Source: Planctomycetota bacterium (GTDB taxonomy: Bacteria > Planctomycetota > SZUA-567 > H5-PLA8). From it: a stretch of 64,000 nt of DNA. Made by a program: the position numbers and the translations under genes. The notes beneath the pieces are model-generated. The model made no database searches. It was not told the DNA's origin and saw only the letters and a program-made list of their open reading frames with translations. Location: positions 1-64,000 of the forward strand of contig BTVV01000001.1 of assembly GCA_045863855.1 (NCBI GenBank), read 5' to 3'. This document shows, one piece after another, positions 23,667 through 40,027 of this stretch (position 1 is its first letter; each line of letters begins with the position of its first letter).

Positions 23667-23754
23667 TGGCGGAGGACAGAGGAGTCGAACCCCACTCGCA
23701 TGCGAGCGATCCGCTTTCGAGGCGGTCCCGGTGCGCCTGTCCGGTTTGTCCTCC
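23667..23754 (-). tRNA. tRNA-Ser(CGA)
   Basis: cloverleaf with long variable arm, loop CTCGAAA, GCCA end. Confidence 0.9.
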
Positions 23755-23760
23755 GGCGTG

Positions 23761-24318
23761 TCAGCGTCCTTGCACGAAGCGCGCCCAGCGGGCTTCGTCT
23801 TCCCACGGGCGCGGCGGCATCCAGACCGGCTGCGCCGGCGGCTTGGCCAGGCGCATCCGCGCTTCTTCCGGCGTGCGGTCGTTCTTGCGCCGGTTGCAGG
23901 CCACGCAAGCCGCGACGCAATTGGACCATACGGTCGCGCCGCCGCGCGAACGCGGCAGGACGTGATCGATGGTCAGGCGCGCGGCGTGGTCGTGCTGCCC
24001 GCAGTATTGGCACGCGCCGCGGTCGCGCTTAATCACGTTTGCGCGCGAGAACGCGGGCTTGCGCACCGGCACACGGTCGTAGCGCGTGAGGATGATCACG
24101 TCCGGAGCCGGCACGTCGTACGAGCCGCCGCGCACCAGCGCCACGGCCTCGCGGAAGTCCACGCGCGTCCACGAATCGAGGTCATGCGTCGAAAAGTCCT
24201 CCAGGTTCACGGCGCGAGCGTTCCCGTCGGCGAGTTTGCAGAGCGCGCGCATCACGTTCGTCACGTCGATCGGGACCCAGTGCTTGTTGAGCACCAGCGT
24301 CGGGCGGTGGCGTACCAC
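23761..24318 (-). CDS. HNH endonuclease inside tRNA array
   Basis: TLVLN, RD..CQYCG, TIDHVLPRSRGG, WSNCVAAC..CN..K; GGAGAGGA RBS before GTG. Confidence 0.92.
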   Translation of the reverse strand: MVRHRPTLVLNKHWVPIDVTNVMRALCKLADGNARAVNLEDFSTHDLDSWTRVDFREAVALVRGGSYDVPAPDVIILTRYDRVPVRKPAFSRANVIKRDRGACQYCGQHDHAARLTIDHVLPRSRGGATVWSNCVAACVACNRRKNDRTPEEARMRLAKPPAQPVWMPPRPWEDEARWARFVQGR

Positions 24319-24350
24319 GAATTGATTCCTCTCCGGTTTCCGAACAAAAT

Positions 24351-24424
24351 TGGCAAGGCGCCAGGGAGTCGAACCCCGCCGCGCGGTTTTGGAGACCACA
24401 CAGGTTCCCGGACCGTCGCGCCTT
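24351..24424 (-). tRNA. tRNA-Trp(CCA), atypical D-arm
   Basis: loop CTCCAAA, TTCGA T-loop, CCA end. Confidence 0.85.
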
Positions 24425-24440
24425 GTCGCGTACTTCGATC

Positions 24441-24514
24441 TGGCTCGCCCGCCGGGGATCGCACCCGGTCCGCGACCTTCGCAAAGTCGCATGCCTCTCT
24501 TACACCACGGGCGG
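24441..24514 (-). tRNA. tRNA-Arg(GCG), rare anticodon
   Basis: loop TTGCGAA, T-loop TGCGATC, C1:A72 mismatch, GCCA end. Confidence 0.8.
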
Positions 24515-24526
24515 TTCTATTTTCTT

Positions 24527-24600
24527 TGGCGCTCCCGGGAGGATTCGCACCTCCAACCCCCGGTTCGAAGCCGAGGATGATTCTGTTTCAACACGGGAGT
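24527..24600 (-). tRNA. tRNA-Arg(TCG)
   Basis: loop CTTCGAA, T-loop TGCGAAT, GCCA end. Confidence 0.82.
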
Positions 24601-24756
24601 GCAACCCCTACGGCAACGGCGTTCACCACGGAGGCCACGAAGCGCACGGAGAACGGCTGGGCAGGGGAAAACCTCGGCCTTCAACCTCCTTCGTGAGCGC
24701 GGGCCTTATACGGAATCTCCCATGCGCTATTTAGCGCTCCAATCGGCATCAGAATG

Positions 24757-24843
24757 TGGTCGGGGCGGGGAGATTCGAACTCCCATGAGCCGTGAAGCTC
24801 CCGGTTCCTCGGACCGGCGCGTATGCCTTTCCGCCACGCCCCG
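24757..24843 (-). tRNA. tRNA-Leu(GAG), C33
   Basis: loop CCGAGGA, long variable arm, ACCA end. Confidence 0.85.
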
Positions 24844-24897
24844 CATGAGATTCCCATGGCCGTTCACCGTTGACGGTTCACCGTTCACTGTCTTTGC

Positions 24898-24973
24898 TGG
24901 TGTCGCGAGCAGGATTCGAACCCGCACCGTACCGAGTTTAAGTCGGTTGCCTCTGCCGTTGGGCTACCGCGAC
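24898..24973 (-). tRNA. tRNA-Leu(TAA) lacking long variable arm
   Basis: loop CTTAAAC, 5-nt variable loop, 76 nt. Confidence 0.85.
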
Positions 24974-25024
24974 AGGCCATGTCATTCGCTTCCCTTGTTG
25001 ACCGGAAAATCCGGTCGTTCGCTA

Positions 25025-25111
25025 TGGCGGAGGGCGGAGGAGTCGAACCTCGTGCCCGAAAGCACGCGCTGCTTAGCATGCAGGCCCGAACCCGCGTCCG
25101 GCTCGCCCTCC
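25025..25111 (-). tRNA. tRNA-Ser(GCT)
   Basis: loop ATGCTAA, long variable arm, GCCA end. Confidence 0.87.
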
Positions 25112-25121
25112 GCTTCAAAAT

Positions 25122-25209
25122 TGGTCGCCCCGGAGGGATTCGAACCCTCACGTCCGTGTGGACCCGAGCTTCTGAGACTCGTGCGTCTGCCAGGTTCCGC
25201 CACGGGGCG
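25122..25209 (-). tRNA. tRNA-Leu(CAG)
   Basis: loop CTCAGAA, long variable arm. Confidence 0.9.
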
Positions 25210-25326
25210 ATCGCAGCGGCGGAGGGCCAGGCATCGGAGTATTTCCGAGGGTGGAGCCGCTCGGAATTCGAGGACTCCCACGCCTGGCCGCTCACGCCGC
25301 CGGTTTCAAAATCTCTTTTCTCCTGC

Positions 25327-25400
25327 TGGTGCCCACTGGAGGAGTCGAACCTCCGCCTCCACCGTGTCAGGGTGGCGCTCTCCCGTTGAGCCAAGCGGAC
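25327..25400 (-). tRNA. tRNA-Val(GAC)
   Basis: loop CTGACAC. Confidence 0.9.
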
Positions 25401-25412
25401 AACCGTTCCTAT

Positions 25413-25486
25413 TGGTAGCCGCTGAAGGAGTCGAACCTTCGTCTCCAGCGTGTGATGCTGGCGCCCTCCCGTTAGGCGAAGCGGCT
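25413..25486 (-). tRNA. tRNA-Val(CAC)
   Basis: loop ATCACAC. Confidence 0.88.
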
Positions 25487-25493
25487 AAACAGT

Positions 25494-25569
25494 TGGTAAC
25501 GAGCCGTGGAATCGAACCACGCTTGCAAGCTTATGAAACTCGCCAGACCTCCAGGCCTTGCCGCTCGTT
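25494..25569 (-). tRNA. tRNA-Met or Ile2 (CAT)
   Basis: loop TTCATAA; atypical D-arm. Confidence 0.8.
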
Positions 25570-25593
25570 GCGCCATGTCCTCCGTGTCTTTTT

Positions 25594-25676
25594 TGGTGGG
25601 GCCGTGAGGAATCGAACCTCCTAGCCGCCGGCGCCGGCTTTACAGGCCAGCTCTGATCCCACTCAGCAGGGGCCCC
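25594..25676 (-). tRNA. tRNA-Tyr(GTA)
   Basis: loop CTGTAAA, extended variable region. Confidence 0.85.
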
Positions 25677-25699
25677 TTTCTCTTTCGTCTTGCCAGGTT

Positions 25700-25777
25700 T
25701 GGTCGGAGCGGTGGGATTTGAACCCACGACCTCTGCGTTCCGAACGCAGCGCGCTTGCCAAACTGCGCTACGCTCCG
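25700..25777 (-). tRNA. tRNA-Pro(CGG), A37
   Basis: C1:G72, A73, loop TTCGGAA. Confidence 0.92.
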
Positions 25778-25831
25778 CCTTACGAATTCATCTGCCTCGT
25801 CTCTTAATCAAAATCCGCAATCCCAAACGGT

Positions 25832-25906
25832 TGGCGGGGCCCCCGGGAATCGAACCCGGCTTTCCTGCGCTTCAAGCAGGCGTCGTCCCATCCCGACCCA
25901 AGCCCC
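25832..25906 (-). tRNA. tRNA-Phe(GAA), atypical
   Basis: loop TTGAAGC, G73. Confidence 0.82.
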
Positions 25907-25928
25907 GGCTGTTACCGTTCATCGACTT

Positions 25929-26005
25929 TGGCGCCTACGGCCGGAGTCGCACCGGCTTGCTCCACCGTGACAGGGTGGCGGCTCCACGGCTTCGCCTTCG
26001 CAGGC
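25929..26005 (-). tRNA. tRNA-Asp(GTC)
   Basis: loop CTGTCAC, T-loop TGCGACT, G73. Confidence 0.85.
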
Positions 26006-26023
26006 TTTGTCTGCTCCTTCGTT

Positions 26024-26097
26024 TGGAGACCGCGGAGGGATTCGCACCCCCGTGGACGGCGTTGCAGGCCGCCGCCTCGCTTCTCGGCCACGCGGTC
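26024..26097 (-). tRNA. tRNA-Cys(GCA)
   Basis: loop CTGCAAC, U73, T-loop TGCGAAT. Confidence 0.88.
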
Positions 26098-26111
26098 TTC
26101 GCTACGGTTCA

Positions 26112-26186
26112 TGGGGTGGCGTGCGGGAGTCGAACCCGCTCTTCAAGCTTCACGAGCTTGCGTGCGCCCGGCACACTCACGCTACC
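26112..26186 (-). tRNA. tRNA-His(GTG), C33
   Basis: loop TCGTGAA, G-1:C73. Confidence 0.85.
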
Positions 26187-26198
26187 GACCCATGCGCC

Positions 26199-26272
26199 TG
26201 GTCGGGCAGGAAGGAATCGAACCTTCTCCGGCTGCGTATCAGACAACCGTGCTGCCGTTACACCACCGCCCG
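26199..26272 (-). tRNA. tRNA-Ile(GAT)
   Basis: loop CTGATAC. Confidence 0.88.
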
Positions 26273-26276
26273 ACCG

Positions 26277-26828
26277 CTACTTCCGCTCCTTTCGCGCGAA
26301 CCATTCTTCGGCCAAGACGCCCATGATCAGGACATCGTGGTAGCGCCCTTCGCAAAACGTCGCCTGGCGCATGATGCCTTCGCGGACATAACCGGCCTTC
26401 TCGTACGCGCGGATCCCGCCCGGGTTGTTCGCGTACACGTGAAGACAGATCCGGTTCAGGTTCAGCGTTTCGAACCCGTACTTCAGCATCAGCTTCGCCG
26501 TCTCGGTTCCGTGGCCTTTGTTCCACTCGTCCTTCGCGCCGATGAAGATGCCGAACATGGCCGCACGGTCTTTTTCCAGCTTCAAATGCAGGCCGGTATT
26601 GCCCAGGAAGCGGTCGTCGCTCTTGCGCGCGATGGCGAGCAGGACGTTGCGCTCGTCCTTCATCGCCTTTTCGAGCCACGCTTCTTCCGCTTCAAGCGTC
26701 AGCGGCCGGTGCATGTTCAGCGTCCGCGTGATCTGCTCGTCGTTGAGGTACTCGACGATGGCCGGCGCGTCCGCGCGTTCGAGGGGCCTCAAGTAAATGC
26801 GCTCGCCGATCAAGAATGGATTTCTCAT
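26277..26828 (-). CDS. GNAT N-acetyltransferase (RimJ/RimL-like) inside tRNA array
   Basis: GERIYLRPL, WNKGHGTE, N..GIRAYEKAGY..EG; GGAG RBS. Confidence 0.92.
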   Translation of the reverse strand: MRNPFLIGERIYLRPLERADAPAIVEYLNDEQITRTLNMHRPLTLEAEEAWLEKAMKDERNVLLAIARKSDDRFLGNTGLHLKLEKDRAAMFGIFIGAKDEWNKGHGTETAKLMLKYGFETLNLNRICLHVYANNPGGIRAYEKAGYVREGIMRQATFCEGRYHDVLIMGVLAEEWFARKERK

Positions 26829-26860
26829 CGCTCCACCGCTTCCTTTCGTGTCCGTGCTTC

Positions 26861-26934
26861 TGGTTGGCCCGCGAGGATTCGAACCTCGGTCTGCGGAGCC
26901 AAAGTCCGCCGTCTTACCTTTAGACGACGGGCCA
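26861..26934 (-). tRNA. tRNA-Gln(TTG)
   Basis: loop CTTTGGC, U1:A72. Confidence 0.9.
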
Positions 26935-26943
26935 TTCGAGCGT

Positions 26944-27019
26944 TGGCGTTCCCGGCGGGATTCGAACCCGCGTGACCAGACTGAGAACCTGGCATCCTCA
27001 ACCGCTAGATGACAGGAAC
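26944..27019 (-). tRNA. tRNA-Glu(CTC)
   Basis: loop TTCTCAG. Confidence 0.9.
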
Positions 27020-27036
27020 ACCTACGTCGCTTTCTT

Positions 27037-27111
27037 TGGAGCAGCCGGCGGGAATCGAACCCGCGCCTCGGCGTTGGAAGCGCCGCATGCCGCCGCGAAC
27101 ACCTCGGCCGC
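27037..27111 (-). tRNA. tRNA-Gly(TCC)
   Basis: loop CTTCCAA, U73. Confidence 0.87.
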
Positions 27112-27141
27112 TCGATTTTCATCCCTCGTTTCCGTCTCATC

Positions 27142-27215
27142 TGGCTGCGGGGCAAGGATTCGAACCTCGATCGCCTGGTTCAGAGCCAAGCATCCTGCCG
27201 TTAGACGACCCCGCA
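27142..27215 (-). tRNA. tRNA-Gln(CTG)
   Basis: loop CTCTGAA. Confidence 0.9.
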
Positions 27216-27217
27216 TC

Positions 27218-27293
27218 TGGTGCGTCCCGTGGGGCTCGAACCCACACCGTCCCGGGTAAGAACCGGGTGCTCTGCCGCTCGAGCTACGGACGC
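27218..27293 (-). tRNA. tRNA-Lys(CTT)
   Basis: loop TTCTTAC. Confidence 0.88.
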
Positions 27294-27327
27294 GACCGAA
27301 ACTCATCCACGAACGCTCACGACCGTC

Positions 27328-27403
27328 TGGTTCCTCCGGTGGGATTTGAACCCACACCCCTCGGCTTAAAAGACCGGTATGCTGCCGTTGACACCACGGA
27401 GGA
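27328..27403 (-). tRNA. tRNA-Lys(TTT)
   Basis: loop CTTTTAA. Confidence 0.88.
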
Positions 27404-27451
27404 ACGGGCGTTTACCGCTCACGCGTTTCATCCGCTTCCTCCTTTCTCTTT

Positions 27452-27525
27452 TGGCAGCCCCACGGGGAATTGAACCCCGATCTCCGGACTGAAAATCCGG
27501 CATCCTGCCCTTAGACGATGGAGCC
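27452..27525 (-). tRNA. tRNA-Glu(TTC)
   Basis: loop TTTTCAG. Confidence 0.9.
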
Positions 27526-27624
27526 GCCTTACTCCGCCGCCGTCCTTTTCCCTTCCCGCCCGCCTCCGCAGGGCTGCGCCCTGCTTCGGCGCGGCAGCCT
27601 TCGCTCGCTTTCGCTCGCGAAGGT

Positions 27625-27699
27625 TGGTGGAGCGGCCGGGAGTTGCACCCGGATCTCGGCCATGCGAGGGCCGCGTGTTTCTGTTGTCACCACCGTCCC
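27625..27699 (-). tRNA. tRNA-Ala(CGC)
   Basis: loop CTCGCAT, G3:U70 identity pair, T-loop TGCAACT. Confidence 0.88.
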
Positions 27700-27724
27700 A
27701 CTGCCGCCTGCAAACTCGATACTT

Positions 27725-27798
27725 TGGCTCCGGCGGGAGGATTCGAACCTCCATTTCCTGCGTAACAGGCAGGCGTGATGCCTTTACACCACGCCGGA
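27725..27798 (-). tRNA. tRNA-Asn(GTT)
   Basis: loop CTGTTAC, G73. Confidence 0.9.
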
Positions 27799-27899
27799 AC
27801 GAACCGTCCCTCGCCGCCCGCGGGGGGCCGGGGCTCGGAAGGCGCGGAGCCATGAAGCTCGGCGCTTCCGCCCAATCCCCGGCCCCCGTCGGCAACCCT

Positions 27900-27971
27900 T
27901 GGAGCCGCGTGCGGGAGTCGAACCCGCTCGCACCTCGTTACGAGCGAGGCGTGCGCCCGGCGCCTCGCGGC
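27900..27971 (-). tRNA. tRNA-Thr(CGT), shortened D-arm
   Basis: loop CTCGTAA, 72 nt. Confidence 0.78.
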
Positions 27972-27986
27972 GAACTCAACTTCATC

Positions 27987-28061
27987 TGGAGCCGCTCGAG
28001 GGACTCGAACCCTCTCTTGCGCTCTACCAAAGCGCCGTGCGACCCTTCACACCCGAGCGGC
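27987..28061 (-). tRNA. tRNA-Thr(GGT)
   Basis: loop TTGGTAG. Confidence 0.85.
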
Positions 28062-28104
28062 ACGCCAGCAGTCGGCTTGCCGAGCCGAAGCCGCAGGCGA
28101 AGGC

Positions 28105-28178
28105 TGGAGCGGGAGACGGGACTTGAACCCGTGTCTCGAACTCGGCAAGTTCGCGCTCTCCCCTTGAGCTACACCCGC
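28105..28178 (-). tRNA. tRNA-Gly(GCC), first gene of array
   Basis: loop TTGCCGA, U73. Confidence 0.92.
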
Positions 28179-28361
28179 TCGACTCAGACCCTTTCGCTTC
28201 GGCCAGGCAACAGGCCTCCCGGCGAAGCGCGCGCTGCGCTTCGAAAAATCCGGCCGGTCTGTCGTCTGCGAACTCTCGGCGGGCTATTTACGACCCGCAT
28301 TCGGAACGAAATTCACATCGTTCCGCGTGGCTCAAAACCCATTTCCAGCCGCGCGCAGAAC

Positions 28362-28397
28362 AAAAAAGCCTTCCTGGGTCGGTCCCAGGAAGGCTTT
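28362..28397 (-). terminator. intrinsic terminator upstream of tRNA array (candidate attenuator)
   Basis: GCCTTCCTGGG-ACCGA-CCCAGGAAGGC perfect 11-bp stem followed by T6 on minus strand. Confidence 0.88.
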
Positions 28398-28425
28398 AGC
28401 CAAGCGGCGGCGATGTAAGCTCTTC

Positions 28426-28590
28426 CTAGGGCGCGGGCCCTCCCAGGGCCTCGCTATCCCGGTACGAATTCTGCGTACCTTGGGCTCGCGGACTTGGTTT
28501 TACCAAGCCGATCCCGGCGCAGAATGCGGCCGGCATAAATCCGCGCGCGGCGGATTCATGGCGGGTTAGGAAGAGAAACCAGTGCTGCAT
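28426..28590 (-). CDS. candidate attenuator leader peptide (54 aa, all 20 amino acids)
   Basis: AGGAG then ATG; MQHWFLFLTRHESAARGFMPAAFCAGIGLVKPSPRAQGTQNSYRDSEALGGPAP*; stop about 30 nt before terminator; below the ORF-track size cut-off. Confidence 0.7.
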   Translation of the reverse strand: MQHWFLFLTRHESAARGFMPAAFCAGIGLVKPSPRAQGTQNSYRDSEALGGPAP

Positions 28591-28852
28591 GGAAGATCAC
28601 GCTCCTCAATACTTCGTGCTCTCAACCAACCGCATGAAAGACGCTTCGTCAAGCAGGTAGCCTGAAATTTTCTTGAGCGATGCGAAGAGTAATTCCTCCC
28701 TAGCAGGGCGAATAATTCCCGGCATGACGGTTTAGATGCGGCCGATGAACCCGCATCGTGCGTGCGGACCGGGAGTAGCACGCCGCGCGCGCCGATGGTA
28801 GCCTGTAACGCACACGTGTGAATTGTTACGCCGAAGCCGTGGGAGTCCCGTG

Positions 28853-39939: not shown

Positions 39940-40027
<88 letters not shown>

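Follow-up and report, generated by a model that had tools for sequence, protein, structure and literature searches.

The first 64,000 nucleotides of contig BTVV01000001.1 (assembly GCA_045863855.1; Planctomycetota, SZUA-567, H5-PLA8), referred to below as the window, contain on the minus strand an array of 30 tRNA genes preceded by a short leader. The leader appears to be a ribosome-mediated (leader-peptide) transcription attenuator of the trp/BmrB type that gates this supernumerary L-array, with the array version of the device sensing the decoding of every amino acid; we hold this reading with moderate confidence. The anatomy of the leader, its conservation, the covariation of its antiterminator, the conservation of its reading frame and an amino-acid completeness specific to leaders of arrays are observed here and support it. 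All positions are those of the window, and leader, switch, spacer and array lie on the minus strand. G000 designates the genome of the window, other G numbers designate other genomes, and L numbers designate loci, many of them from metagenomes. Nine leaders form the family set: those of G000, G002, and G001, which belong to one genus, and those of G003, G004, G005, G006, G007, and G010, which represent six other genera.

The leader opens with a putative promoter, comprising a -35-like TTGACG (28647..28652) and the block TGCGGTTGGTTGAG (28621..28634) with a -10-like TTGGTT (28629-28624). The -35-like hexamer is the same in G001 and recurs as TTGACN at equal spacing in the six other genera; the -10 block is identical in G000 and G001, with diverged flanks. 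A Shine-Dalgarno (SD) sequence GAGGAG (28602..28607) lies 11 nt 5' of an ATG at 28590, and an SD-like word precedes the start in all nine family leaders. The open reading frame (ORF) starting there (28426..28590) has 54 sense codons, the last of which is CCC (Pro), and ends at TAG 28428-28426; the frame is retained in relatives with unalignable peptides. It encodes all 20 amino acids with 40 different sense codons. Nine amino acids occur once, the commonest, Ala, occurs eight times, and there are no runs; the tandem or clustered codons for a regulating amino acid that are the hallmark of trp/his-type leaders are missing from it. SD, start, frame, stop, and the counts of amino acids and codons had been given in a preliminary description from the sequence alone, and all of them hold on recounting. 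The codons called unusual there are truly rare in the genome (CTA 1.5, AGT 2.1, CGA 3.3, and GTA 4.0 per thousand). Codon adaptation of the leader is 0.465 versus 0.70 ± 0.10, at the 1.6th percentile of gene windows in this genome, and 11 of 53 codons are rare, versus a mean of 3.8 in gene windows.

The 3' part of the leader can form two alternative structures. Segment 2 CCTAGGAAGAGCTT (28417..28430), which includes the stop codon, is by computed pairing the 5' strand of an antiterminator. It is followed by a 20-nt linker (28397..28416) enclosed in the antiterminator and containing a small hairpin, which is found at the same place with differing sequences in all nine family leaders and may act as a pause hairpin. 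The intrinsic terminator (28366..28396) consists of a 5' arm (segment 3, 28396-28384), a loop (28383-28379), and a 3' arm (segment 4, 28378-28366). Its GC-rich stem has 13-14 pairs, more than the 11 bp first counted, and with T6 it reaches -24.2 kcal/mol. The T-run TTTTTTG (28361..28367) ends 183 nt before the first tRNA gene of the array, tRNA-Gly(GCC) at 28178, in agreement with the earlier estimate of about 180 nt. Segments 2 and 3 pair in 13 base pairs, as previously proposed, with -21.4 kcal/mol including the enclosed small hairpin. A second stretch that had been noted as able to pair with the terminator arm is the internal SD-like GGGAGG (28439..28444), complementary to CCUUCC of segment 3 and located 7 nt 5' of the P-site codon when the stop codon is in the A site. 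In all nine family leaders the terminator, at -21 to -26 kcal/mol, and the antiterminator formed by 2:3 pairing around the linker hairpin, at -17 to -22 kcal/mol, are mutually exclusive, and the stop codon lies inside segment 2, a geometry shared by nearly all other leaders.

The module was traced through the arrays it precedes. BLAST with the whole leader against 61 relatives retrieved only G002 (99% identity) and part of G001, both of the same genus. Between G001 and G000 the ORF interior is about 50% identical, and conservation covers the promoter block, the ATG, TCTTCCTA, CCCTAGGAAGAGCTT, and the terminator; G001 likewise has an open frame of exactly 54 codons, encoding a different peptide with 19 amino acids. 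The array tRNAs, rather than the leader, were then used as the query across 17 genomes of the family, and arrays opening with tRNA-Gly(GCC) were found in G001 and in G003, G004, G005, G006, G007, and G010. Upstream of every such array lie TTGACN, a 17-nt spacer and TTRRTT, an SD, an ATG, an ORF of 51-58 codons, a TAG within CCCTAG(G)AAG, a linker hairpin, and a terminator of the form CCTTCCNGGG...CCNGGAAGG with its T-run; the first tRNA follows after 110-210 nt. All 20 amino acids are encoded by seven of the nine family leaders, with G001 lacking Ile and G004 lacking Trp. The architecture that the preliminary description had asked to be sought upstream of homologous arrays, namely a ribosome-binding site, a short ORF with a diverged peptide, a stop codon in the antiterminator, and covariation, is present. 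A looser DNA pattern yielded 62 metagenome loci. A covariance model built from segment 2 and the terminator recognized the module in 18 of the class's 62 genomes; for the phylum the figure was 6 of 151 genomes sampled, counting G000, where the array leader is the only one. Inspection by eye of the family promoters (28621-28652 in the window, the same place in L062-L068) shows TTGACN, a 17-nt spacer ending in GG, and the unusual -10-like TTRRTT.

Pairing and covariation were evaluated in an alignment of 48 non-redundant sequences. The terminator is paired at 98%, a value that for the metagenome rows is partly forced by the search pattern. The antiterminator is paired at 83% versus 28-59% in slid controls, and shows 14 double-change cells versus 4.0 ± 1.6 in shuffles, none of 500 shuffles reaching 14. 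The double changes sit in three pairs between GCACCC, from the last two codons, and GGGUGC in the terminator loop, in columns that the search pattern left free. The strong conservation of the terminator is explained by the double duty of segment 3, which must pair both with segment 4 and with the strand encoding Ala-Pro-stop.

A further element, segment 1 CTCTTCCTA (codons 6-8, 28567..28575), is the exact complement of TAGGAAGAG at 28428-28420 and is a candidate anti-antiterminator. The complementarity stands as first described, and segment 1 is retained at +14..+24 in G000, G002, and G001. The 1:2 pairing is not significant beyond this genus: for the six other genera, shuffled sequences give upstream duplexes with segment 2 that are as good as the best real one (P 0.09-0.71). 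Segment 1 being genus-specific, the core of the family is therefore a two-state switch, to which this genus added a candidate anti-antiterminator.

Several features suggest that the ORF is translated. In a frame-blind test, taking the most upstream SD plus start with an ORF of at least 15 codons, the ORF ends exactly at the conserved stop codon in 34 of 41 loci, and 7 loci had no candidate; ORF lengths range over 19-62 codons. Most leaders have CCC as their final sense codon, and TAG is the prevailing stop. Complementarity to the anti-SD, calculated over 53 leaders, forms a single sharp trough for 8-mers starting at -19..-15 before the stop, with a mean depth of -5 to -6.4 kcal/mol versus about 0 elsewhere in the ORF. 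An SD-like word occupies this position in 44 of the 53 leaders and corresponds in the window to GGGAGG at 28444-28439. Release of a peptide that ends in proline is slow, and an SD-like sequence at an initiation-like spacing holds the ribosome. Conservation of the SD-like motif, Pro, and UAG around the stop suggests that ribosomes are parked there in a programmed way, so that a terminating ribosome would probably remain on segment 2 until the terminator forms. For GGGAGG, ribosome holding and pairing with CCUUCC of segment 3 are inseparable from sequence alone.

The feature that sets array leaders apart is amino-acid completeness. The 53 leaders, which include 33 of the 62 metagenome loci, were grouped by what follows them. 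Removed before counting were G002, L085 (with the same peptide as L138), L119 and L120 (near L110), L071 and L102 (near L088), L114 and L117 (near L103), and L122 (leader cut off), as well as the remaining metagenome pattern matches that end long protein genes, lack an ORF with SD and start, or are duplicates. The null expectation was the pooled composition of all leaders, corrected for length. Among 17 array leaders (14 clusters below 40% identity), 12 encode 20, four 19, and one 18 amino acids, with a mean z of +1.72 and all values positive. One of the 16 leaders before single tRNAs is complete (mean z +0.61), and none of the 15 leaders before protein genes (mean z +0.21). Array leaders differ from protein-gene leaders (Mann-Whitney p = 4e-6) and from single-tRNA leaders (p = 0.009), and Fisher over the 14 cluster representatives of array leaders gives p = 2.5e-6. 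A check independent of the start codon, confined to the last 45 codons, gives 18.4 different amino acids in array leaders versus 16.9 in protein-gene leaders (p = 3e-4).

Completeness persists although the peptides themselves do not. Pairwise identity of array-leader peptides is 0.15-0.43 versus 0.24 for shuffled peptides, with most pairs at background. In three close leaders, all complete, Cys is found at residue 28, at residues 28 and 32, and at residue 32 only. Between four and nine amino acids are present exactly once per array leader, and the tails of these leaders are rich in Gly, Ala, and Pro. Ten of the 12 complete leaders already have the full set of 20 within codons 1..L-7, a stretch upstream of any position from which a ribosome would mask segment 2. 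The recurrent property is thus completeness for amino acids and not, as the label "pan-codon" had implied, for codons: the leaders use 34-44 of the 61 codons, and the diversity in G001, with 34 codons, is at expectation (P = 0.30-0.39).

The putative regulated unit (23667..28178) comprises 30 tRNA genes for 20 amino acids, identified by ARAGORN and Rfam, together with genes for a GNAT acetyltransferase and an HNH endonuclease. The claim of a tRNA array for all 20 amino acids stands when weaker calls are admitted; at ARAGORN default the array has 26 tRNAs for 18 amino acids, and the set is completed by His (26112-26185), Asp(GUC) (25932-26005), Ser(GCU) (25025-25111), and Thr(GGU) (27992-28060), called by Rfam or relaxed ARAGORN. 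The rest of the genome has 52 dispersed tRNA genes covering 20 amino acids; for 25 of the 26 array anticodons a further gene with the same anticodon exists elsewhere in the genome, and such copies are 54-85% identical. The array is a supernumerary, sequence-diverged tRNA set that fits the L-array of Santamaria-Gomez et al. 2021 (PMC8421152), and we propose that it was acquired horizontally.

The following mechanism is proposed. Transcription would start near 28618, and a ribosome would load at the SD and ATG and translate the 54-codon leader. On prompt arrival at Pro-UAG it would cover segment 2, where slow release after proline, together with GGGAGG 7 nt 5' of the P site, would probably hold it; this would leave segment 3 available to segment 4, and the polymerase would terminate at the T-run. 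A delay within about the first 47 codons would allow the 2:3 antiterminator to form, so that the terminator would not, and transcription would read through into the tRNA, GNAT, and HNH genes. We infer translation, ribosome parking at the stop, the coupling and timing of ribosome and polymerase, and the inducing signal. The logic of read-through behind a stalled ribosome and termination behind one that reaches the stop, as first suggested for this leader, draws support from the conserved frame, SD, and stop, from the 2:3 covariation, and from array-specific completeness.

Array leaders would keep at least one codon per amino acid, mostly in single copies, and therefore shortage of or damage to any tRNA, or a general block of elongation, should switch on the spare set. 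Recovered decoding should switch it off again. The spare set is thus probably turned on whenever ribosomes falter at any amino acid. In its more specific form the proposal is that array leaders are dedicated sensors of decoding completeness, which, with at least one and usually exactly one codon per amino acid upstream of a ribosome-parking stop, would report the loss of any single tRNA species, for example through anticodon nucleases, tRNA-cleaving toxins, or failure of modification, and switch on mobile, diverged replacement tRNAs with feedback shut-off. To this specific form we give about an even chance.

A number of observations weigh against sensing of every amino acid by the leader. The completeness of the window leader alone is suggestive, at p of about 0.01-0.03, and was noticed post hoc. 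All 20 amino acids in 54 codons are found in 0.3% of 43,117 windows in short open stretches and in 1.0% of 8,310 windows in long ORFs of this genome; they are present in 0.8% of its 3,708 ATG ORFs of 50-60 codons and in 1-2.8% of composition-matched shuffles kept open. The frame itself is open in 21-25% of shuffles of the window leader. The weight of the completeness finding is carried by its recurrence in relatives, and not by a single-sequence p. The combined p-values overstate that recurrence, through kinship of relatives (G006, G013, and L085; the peptides of G010 and L110 are also still related). Two start codons were set by an SD rule that favours the hypothesis; in L093, the GTG start gives 54 codons with 20 amino acids, and an inner ATG gives 27 codons with 14. 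Some array leaders are incomplete: L128 has 18 amino acids, and, outside the class, G146 has 19 in 45 codons and G086 only 16-18. The leader codons CTA, GCC, GCA, TCC, CCA, CCC, and GTA have no matching tRNA in the array. The strong structure of the ORF interior in several leaders is unexpected for a leader that needs fast translation. Extra tRNA would not be expected to relieve amino-acid starvation. A promoter of the array's own in the spacer is possible for part of the expression, although it would leave the covarying antiterminator around the stop unexplained.

The serious rival is the same attenuator acting only as a general sensor of ribosome arrival, responding to antibiotics or global slowdown like BmrB and toiL; it shares everything except a function for completeness, which would be a by-product of length, flat composition, or descent. 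The module is indeed common to the incomplete leaders of efflux pumps, GNATs, and Ro60, p-values per leader are modest (0.03-0.24), and to the incomplete array leaders of G086 and L128 is added that of G011, with 17 amino acids; the small benefit expected from extra tRNA under amino-acid starvation points the same way. Against a by-product speaks that completeness exceeds a length-corrected null built on the leaders' own flat composition, and that sibling leaders differ in it (p = 4e-6, and p = 3e-4 in the 45-codon window). Peptides turned over to background identity have nevertheless stayed complete, with Cys relocated among close relatives. We regard this rival as unlikely, yet as deserving to be taken seriously.

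It is improbable that the leader is an independent small-protein gene with an ordinary terminator, followed by an array that is transcribed, ungated, from its own promoter in the 183-nt spacer. The spacer (28179..28360) is long in the whole family (110-210 nt) and carries a conserved hairpin and TGTTG motif, in the window GAAGCGCAGCGCGCGCTTC (28242-28224) and CTGTTGCC (28214-28206), 30-60 nt 5' of the first tRNA. By eye, the hairpin and a TGTTGTC-like word are present in seven of eight family loci, and could serve in RNA processing or as a promoter; the RNAalifold consensus of the spacer before tRNA-Gly has no pairs. In one RNA run the leader and the tRNAs are covered and the spacer is not, a gap that proves nothing. 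No sigma70-like site was found in the spacer, however, the peptide is unconserved, and the stop is always part of an antiterminator which covaries and uses one strand of the terminator. The module also keeps its place before arrays in eight genera, and the contig of run X16 bridges leader, terminator, and tRNAs.

A very improbable alternative is an untranslated structured RNA, either a riboswitch-like aptamer closed by the 1:2 pairing or a small RNA with its own terminator, in which a ligand or protein decides. The minimum free energy fold of the whole window leader is a five-hairpin multiloop closed by segments 1 and 2 (z = -5.1, none of 200 shuffles being equally stable), and the 1:2 pairing is conserved in G001. 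ORF interiors are more structured than shuffles in seven of the nine family leaders. For the interior alone, z is -2.6 to -7.4 in the window (28436-28581, four successive hairpins), G002, G003, G007, and G010, and this is not so in G004 and G005. A folded regulator of this kind is at odds with an interior that is about 50% identical within the genus and lacks a conserved core, with the absence of segment 1 in other genera, and with an SD, start, frame, and stop that are retained even though ORF length varies between 19 and 62 codons; amino-acid completeness would be meaningless for an untranslated RNA. No covariance model of Rfam 15 matched the leader strand at E ≤ 1, the only hit being a 21-bit chance match on the opposite strand.

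A chance ORF with chance complementarities beside an ordinary terminator deserves next to no credence: such GC-rich sequence, when shuffled, keeps a frame of this length open in 21-41% of cases and the all-20 property is post hoc, yet independent genera and metagenome contigs show the arrangement again with diverged sequence.

For 45 years textbooks have presented leader-peptide attenuation as a mechanism that senses one or a few amino acids, or antibiotics, and controls protein-coding genes. The leaders trpL, hisL, leuL, thrL, and ilvL of E. coli and Salmonella repeat one or a few regulatory codons in runs and act on the biosynthesis of those amino acids. The window leader resembles the trpL type in its short translated leader, intrinsic terminator, and mutually exclusive antiterminator, in the proposed masking by a ribosome at the stop and release by one stalled upstream, and, in this genus, in a candidate 1:2 anti-antiterminator. 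It differs in lacking codon runs, in having each amino acid mostly once, and in its output of tRNA genes; there is no sequence relation. T-box riboswitches bind uncharged tRNA directly, are untranslated, and control aminoacyl-tRNA synthetase and amino-acid genes. They share with the proposed device antitermination in response to tRNA status, and no Rfam T-box match was obtained in the window.

Closer in behaviour is BmrB-bmrCD, whose 53-codon leader is tuned by rare codons and answers several ribosome inhibitors (PMC4191407). Both leaders are of similar length and would sense slowed translation through a terminator and antiterminator, and sibling leaders of the present module control an ABC exporter, a MATE pump, and GNATs. 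The bmrB terminator, in contrast, lies inside the ORF, whereas in the window the stop is in the antiterminator and the terminator follows it; the window leader also has a tRNA array as target, is complete in amino acids, and conserves a Pro-UAG stop with a positioned SD-like motif. The toiL upstream ORF of E. coli topAI is described in PMC12121999 as a multipurpose leader that reports many translation stresses by ribosome position and RNA refolding. Unlike the window leader, it acts via occlusion of a ribosome-binding site and Rho-dependent termination and controls a toxin-antitoxin pair.

With respect to the target, the nearest system is the trn L-array of Anabaena sp. PCC 7120, which is normally silent, induced by translational stress, and linked to an HNH gene (PMC8421152); Planctomycetes are among the phyla listed there as having L-arrays. 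Its repressor is TrcR, a ribbon-helix-helix protein acting on direct repeats over the -10 box (PMC8421152; PMC10272220). A long supernumerary tRNA array with an HNH endonuclease gene is common to both; repression by TrcR contrasts with the cis-acting translated leader with terminator and antiterminator in the window. The TrcR-controlled array is the only regulated L-array that was found in the literature searched (PMC10272220).

Leader-peptide attenuation of tRNA genes was not found in that literature, subscription journals and supplements lying outside the search. The earlier assertion that no attenuator of this kind had been described therefore holds, within that scope, for tRNA genes and fails for translation-stress leaders in general, of which BmrB (PMC4191407) and toiL (PMC12121999) are examples. 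New here would be the tRNA-gene output and the design for sensing all 20 amino acids, placed on a known ribosome-mediated attenuator. With such an output, a test translation in cis would let the translation machinery control the supply of its own adaptors, and leader-peptide attenuation, if the reading is true, would be a general and so far undescribed control of tRNA supply. The all-20 design principle is visible only by comparison, with complete leaders before arrays and ordinary ones before pumps and acetyltransferases. For silent, horizontally transferred L-arrays outside cyanobacteria, the model offers a concrete and testable way of activation, and it would define a translation-stress regulon in the little-studied Planctomycetota, comprising the tRNA array, GNAT, ABC and MATE exporters, and Ro60.

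Sibling leaders of the same type precede several protein genes. Their targets are ABC exporters with an ABC_membrane domain (G001, G004, G005, L111), GNAT proteins of the Acetyltransf_3 family, a MATE pump (G032), a PF04308 protein (L092), and a Ro60/TROVE protein, the last case resting on an unpublished genome (G017) and being one of the 15 protein-gene leaders. The GNAT is of the same type as that in the window array; in G005 (L149) it has its own copy of the leader, and in G015 (L141) it follows tRNA-Asn. By analogy, exporters, GNATs, MATE pumps, and Ro60 would be typical outputs of translation-stress attenuators such as BmrB-bmrCD.

Six RNA runs contain parts of 27900-28750, and four of them, each from a different study, were compared as Logan contigs. 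The contig of X18 spans 28263-28618. Those of X9 (28409-28605, 100% identical) and X19 (28338-28602, a 266-nt contig) are leader-only. X16 (27900-28602) comes from a relative with 35 differences and crosses the terminator into the tRNAs. The upstream ends, at 28618, 28605, 28602, and 28602, show no loose ends, none passes 28618, and the start expected 5-9 nt after TTGGTT is near 28618. That they mark the transcription start is a weak hint, contigs showing neither RNA ends nor levels and DNA being possible in RNA libraries. In X9, 28173-28408 is uncovered; such a gap in contigs is uninformative.

Among the genes embedded in the array, the GNAT gene (26280-26828) encodes an Acetyltransf_3 protein (5e-26), and the HNH endonuclease gene (23764-24492) lies between tRNA-Trp and tRNA-Ser(CGA). 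The listed start of the HNH ORF overlaps tRNA-Trp, and the true start is probably further in. A lone tRNA-Leu(UAG) gene (39940-40024, minus strand) is located 11.8 kb from the array; the leader codon CTA needs the UAG anticodon, which is absent from the array. A plasmid collection contained only single-tRNA matches and no related array.

The leaders of L155 (G146), L086, and L128 head sub-arrays beginning His-Asp-Arg-Phe-Met-Trp or Pro-Pro-Ile-His-Cys, and sub-arrays of both kinds correspond to middle parts of the long arrays of the family. Long arrays may carry internal attenuators or may have been assembled from leader-headed cassettes.

Stricter patterns were less productive. A strict DNA pattern of segment 2 plus the terminator arm matched 15 loci in genome contigs, two of them genus relatives; among these matches, L046 proved on inspection to be a chance terminator, and L032 and L040 have no tRNAs. 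The first metagenome pattern gave no matches. A three-segment pattern, run on 401 Planctomycetota genomes, matched without mismatch only in genus g1 and with one mismatch no more often than a reversed-pattern control.

A second form of the module, type B, occurs at L071, L073, L078, L079, L088, L090, L099, L103, L105, L112, L113, and L123, at about 850-1300 of the oriented locus. It has a sigma70-like promoter, an SD, and an ORF of 19-45 codons ending with Pro-TAG in the same antiterminator and terminator. Examined by eye, the idea that type B leader codons match the downstream anticodon fits L071, L088, and L103, with ATA before CAU tRNAs. It was dropped: L106 has no His codon before tRNA-His, L112 no AGY before GCU, and L105 no ATA. 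On the 3' side of type B modules lies a strongly conserved spacer of about 120 nt followed by a single tRNA, and Rfam reported tRNAs only at these loci. The tRNA body is nearly constant between loci, and its anticodon varies (GAU, CAU, GCU, UGG, CGG, and odd loops).

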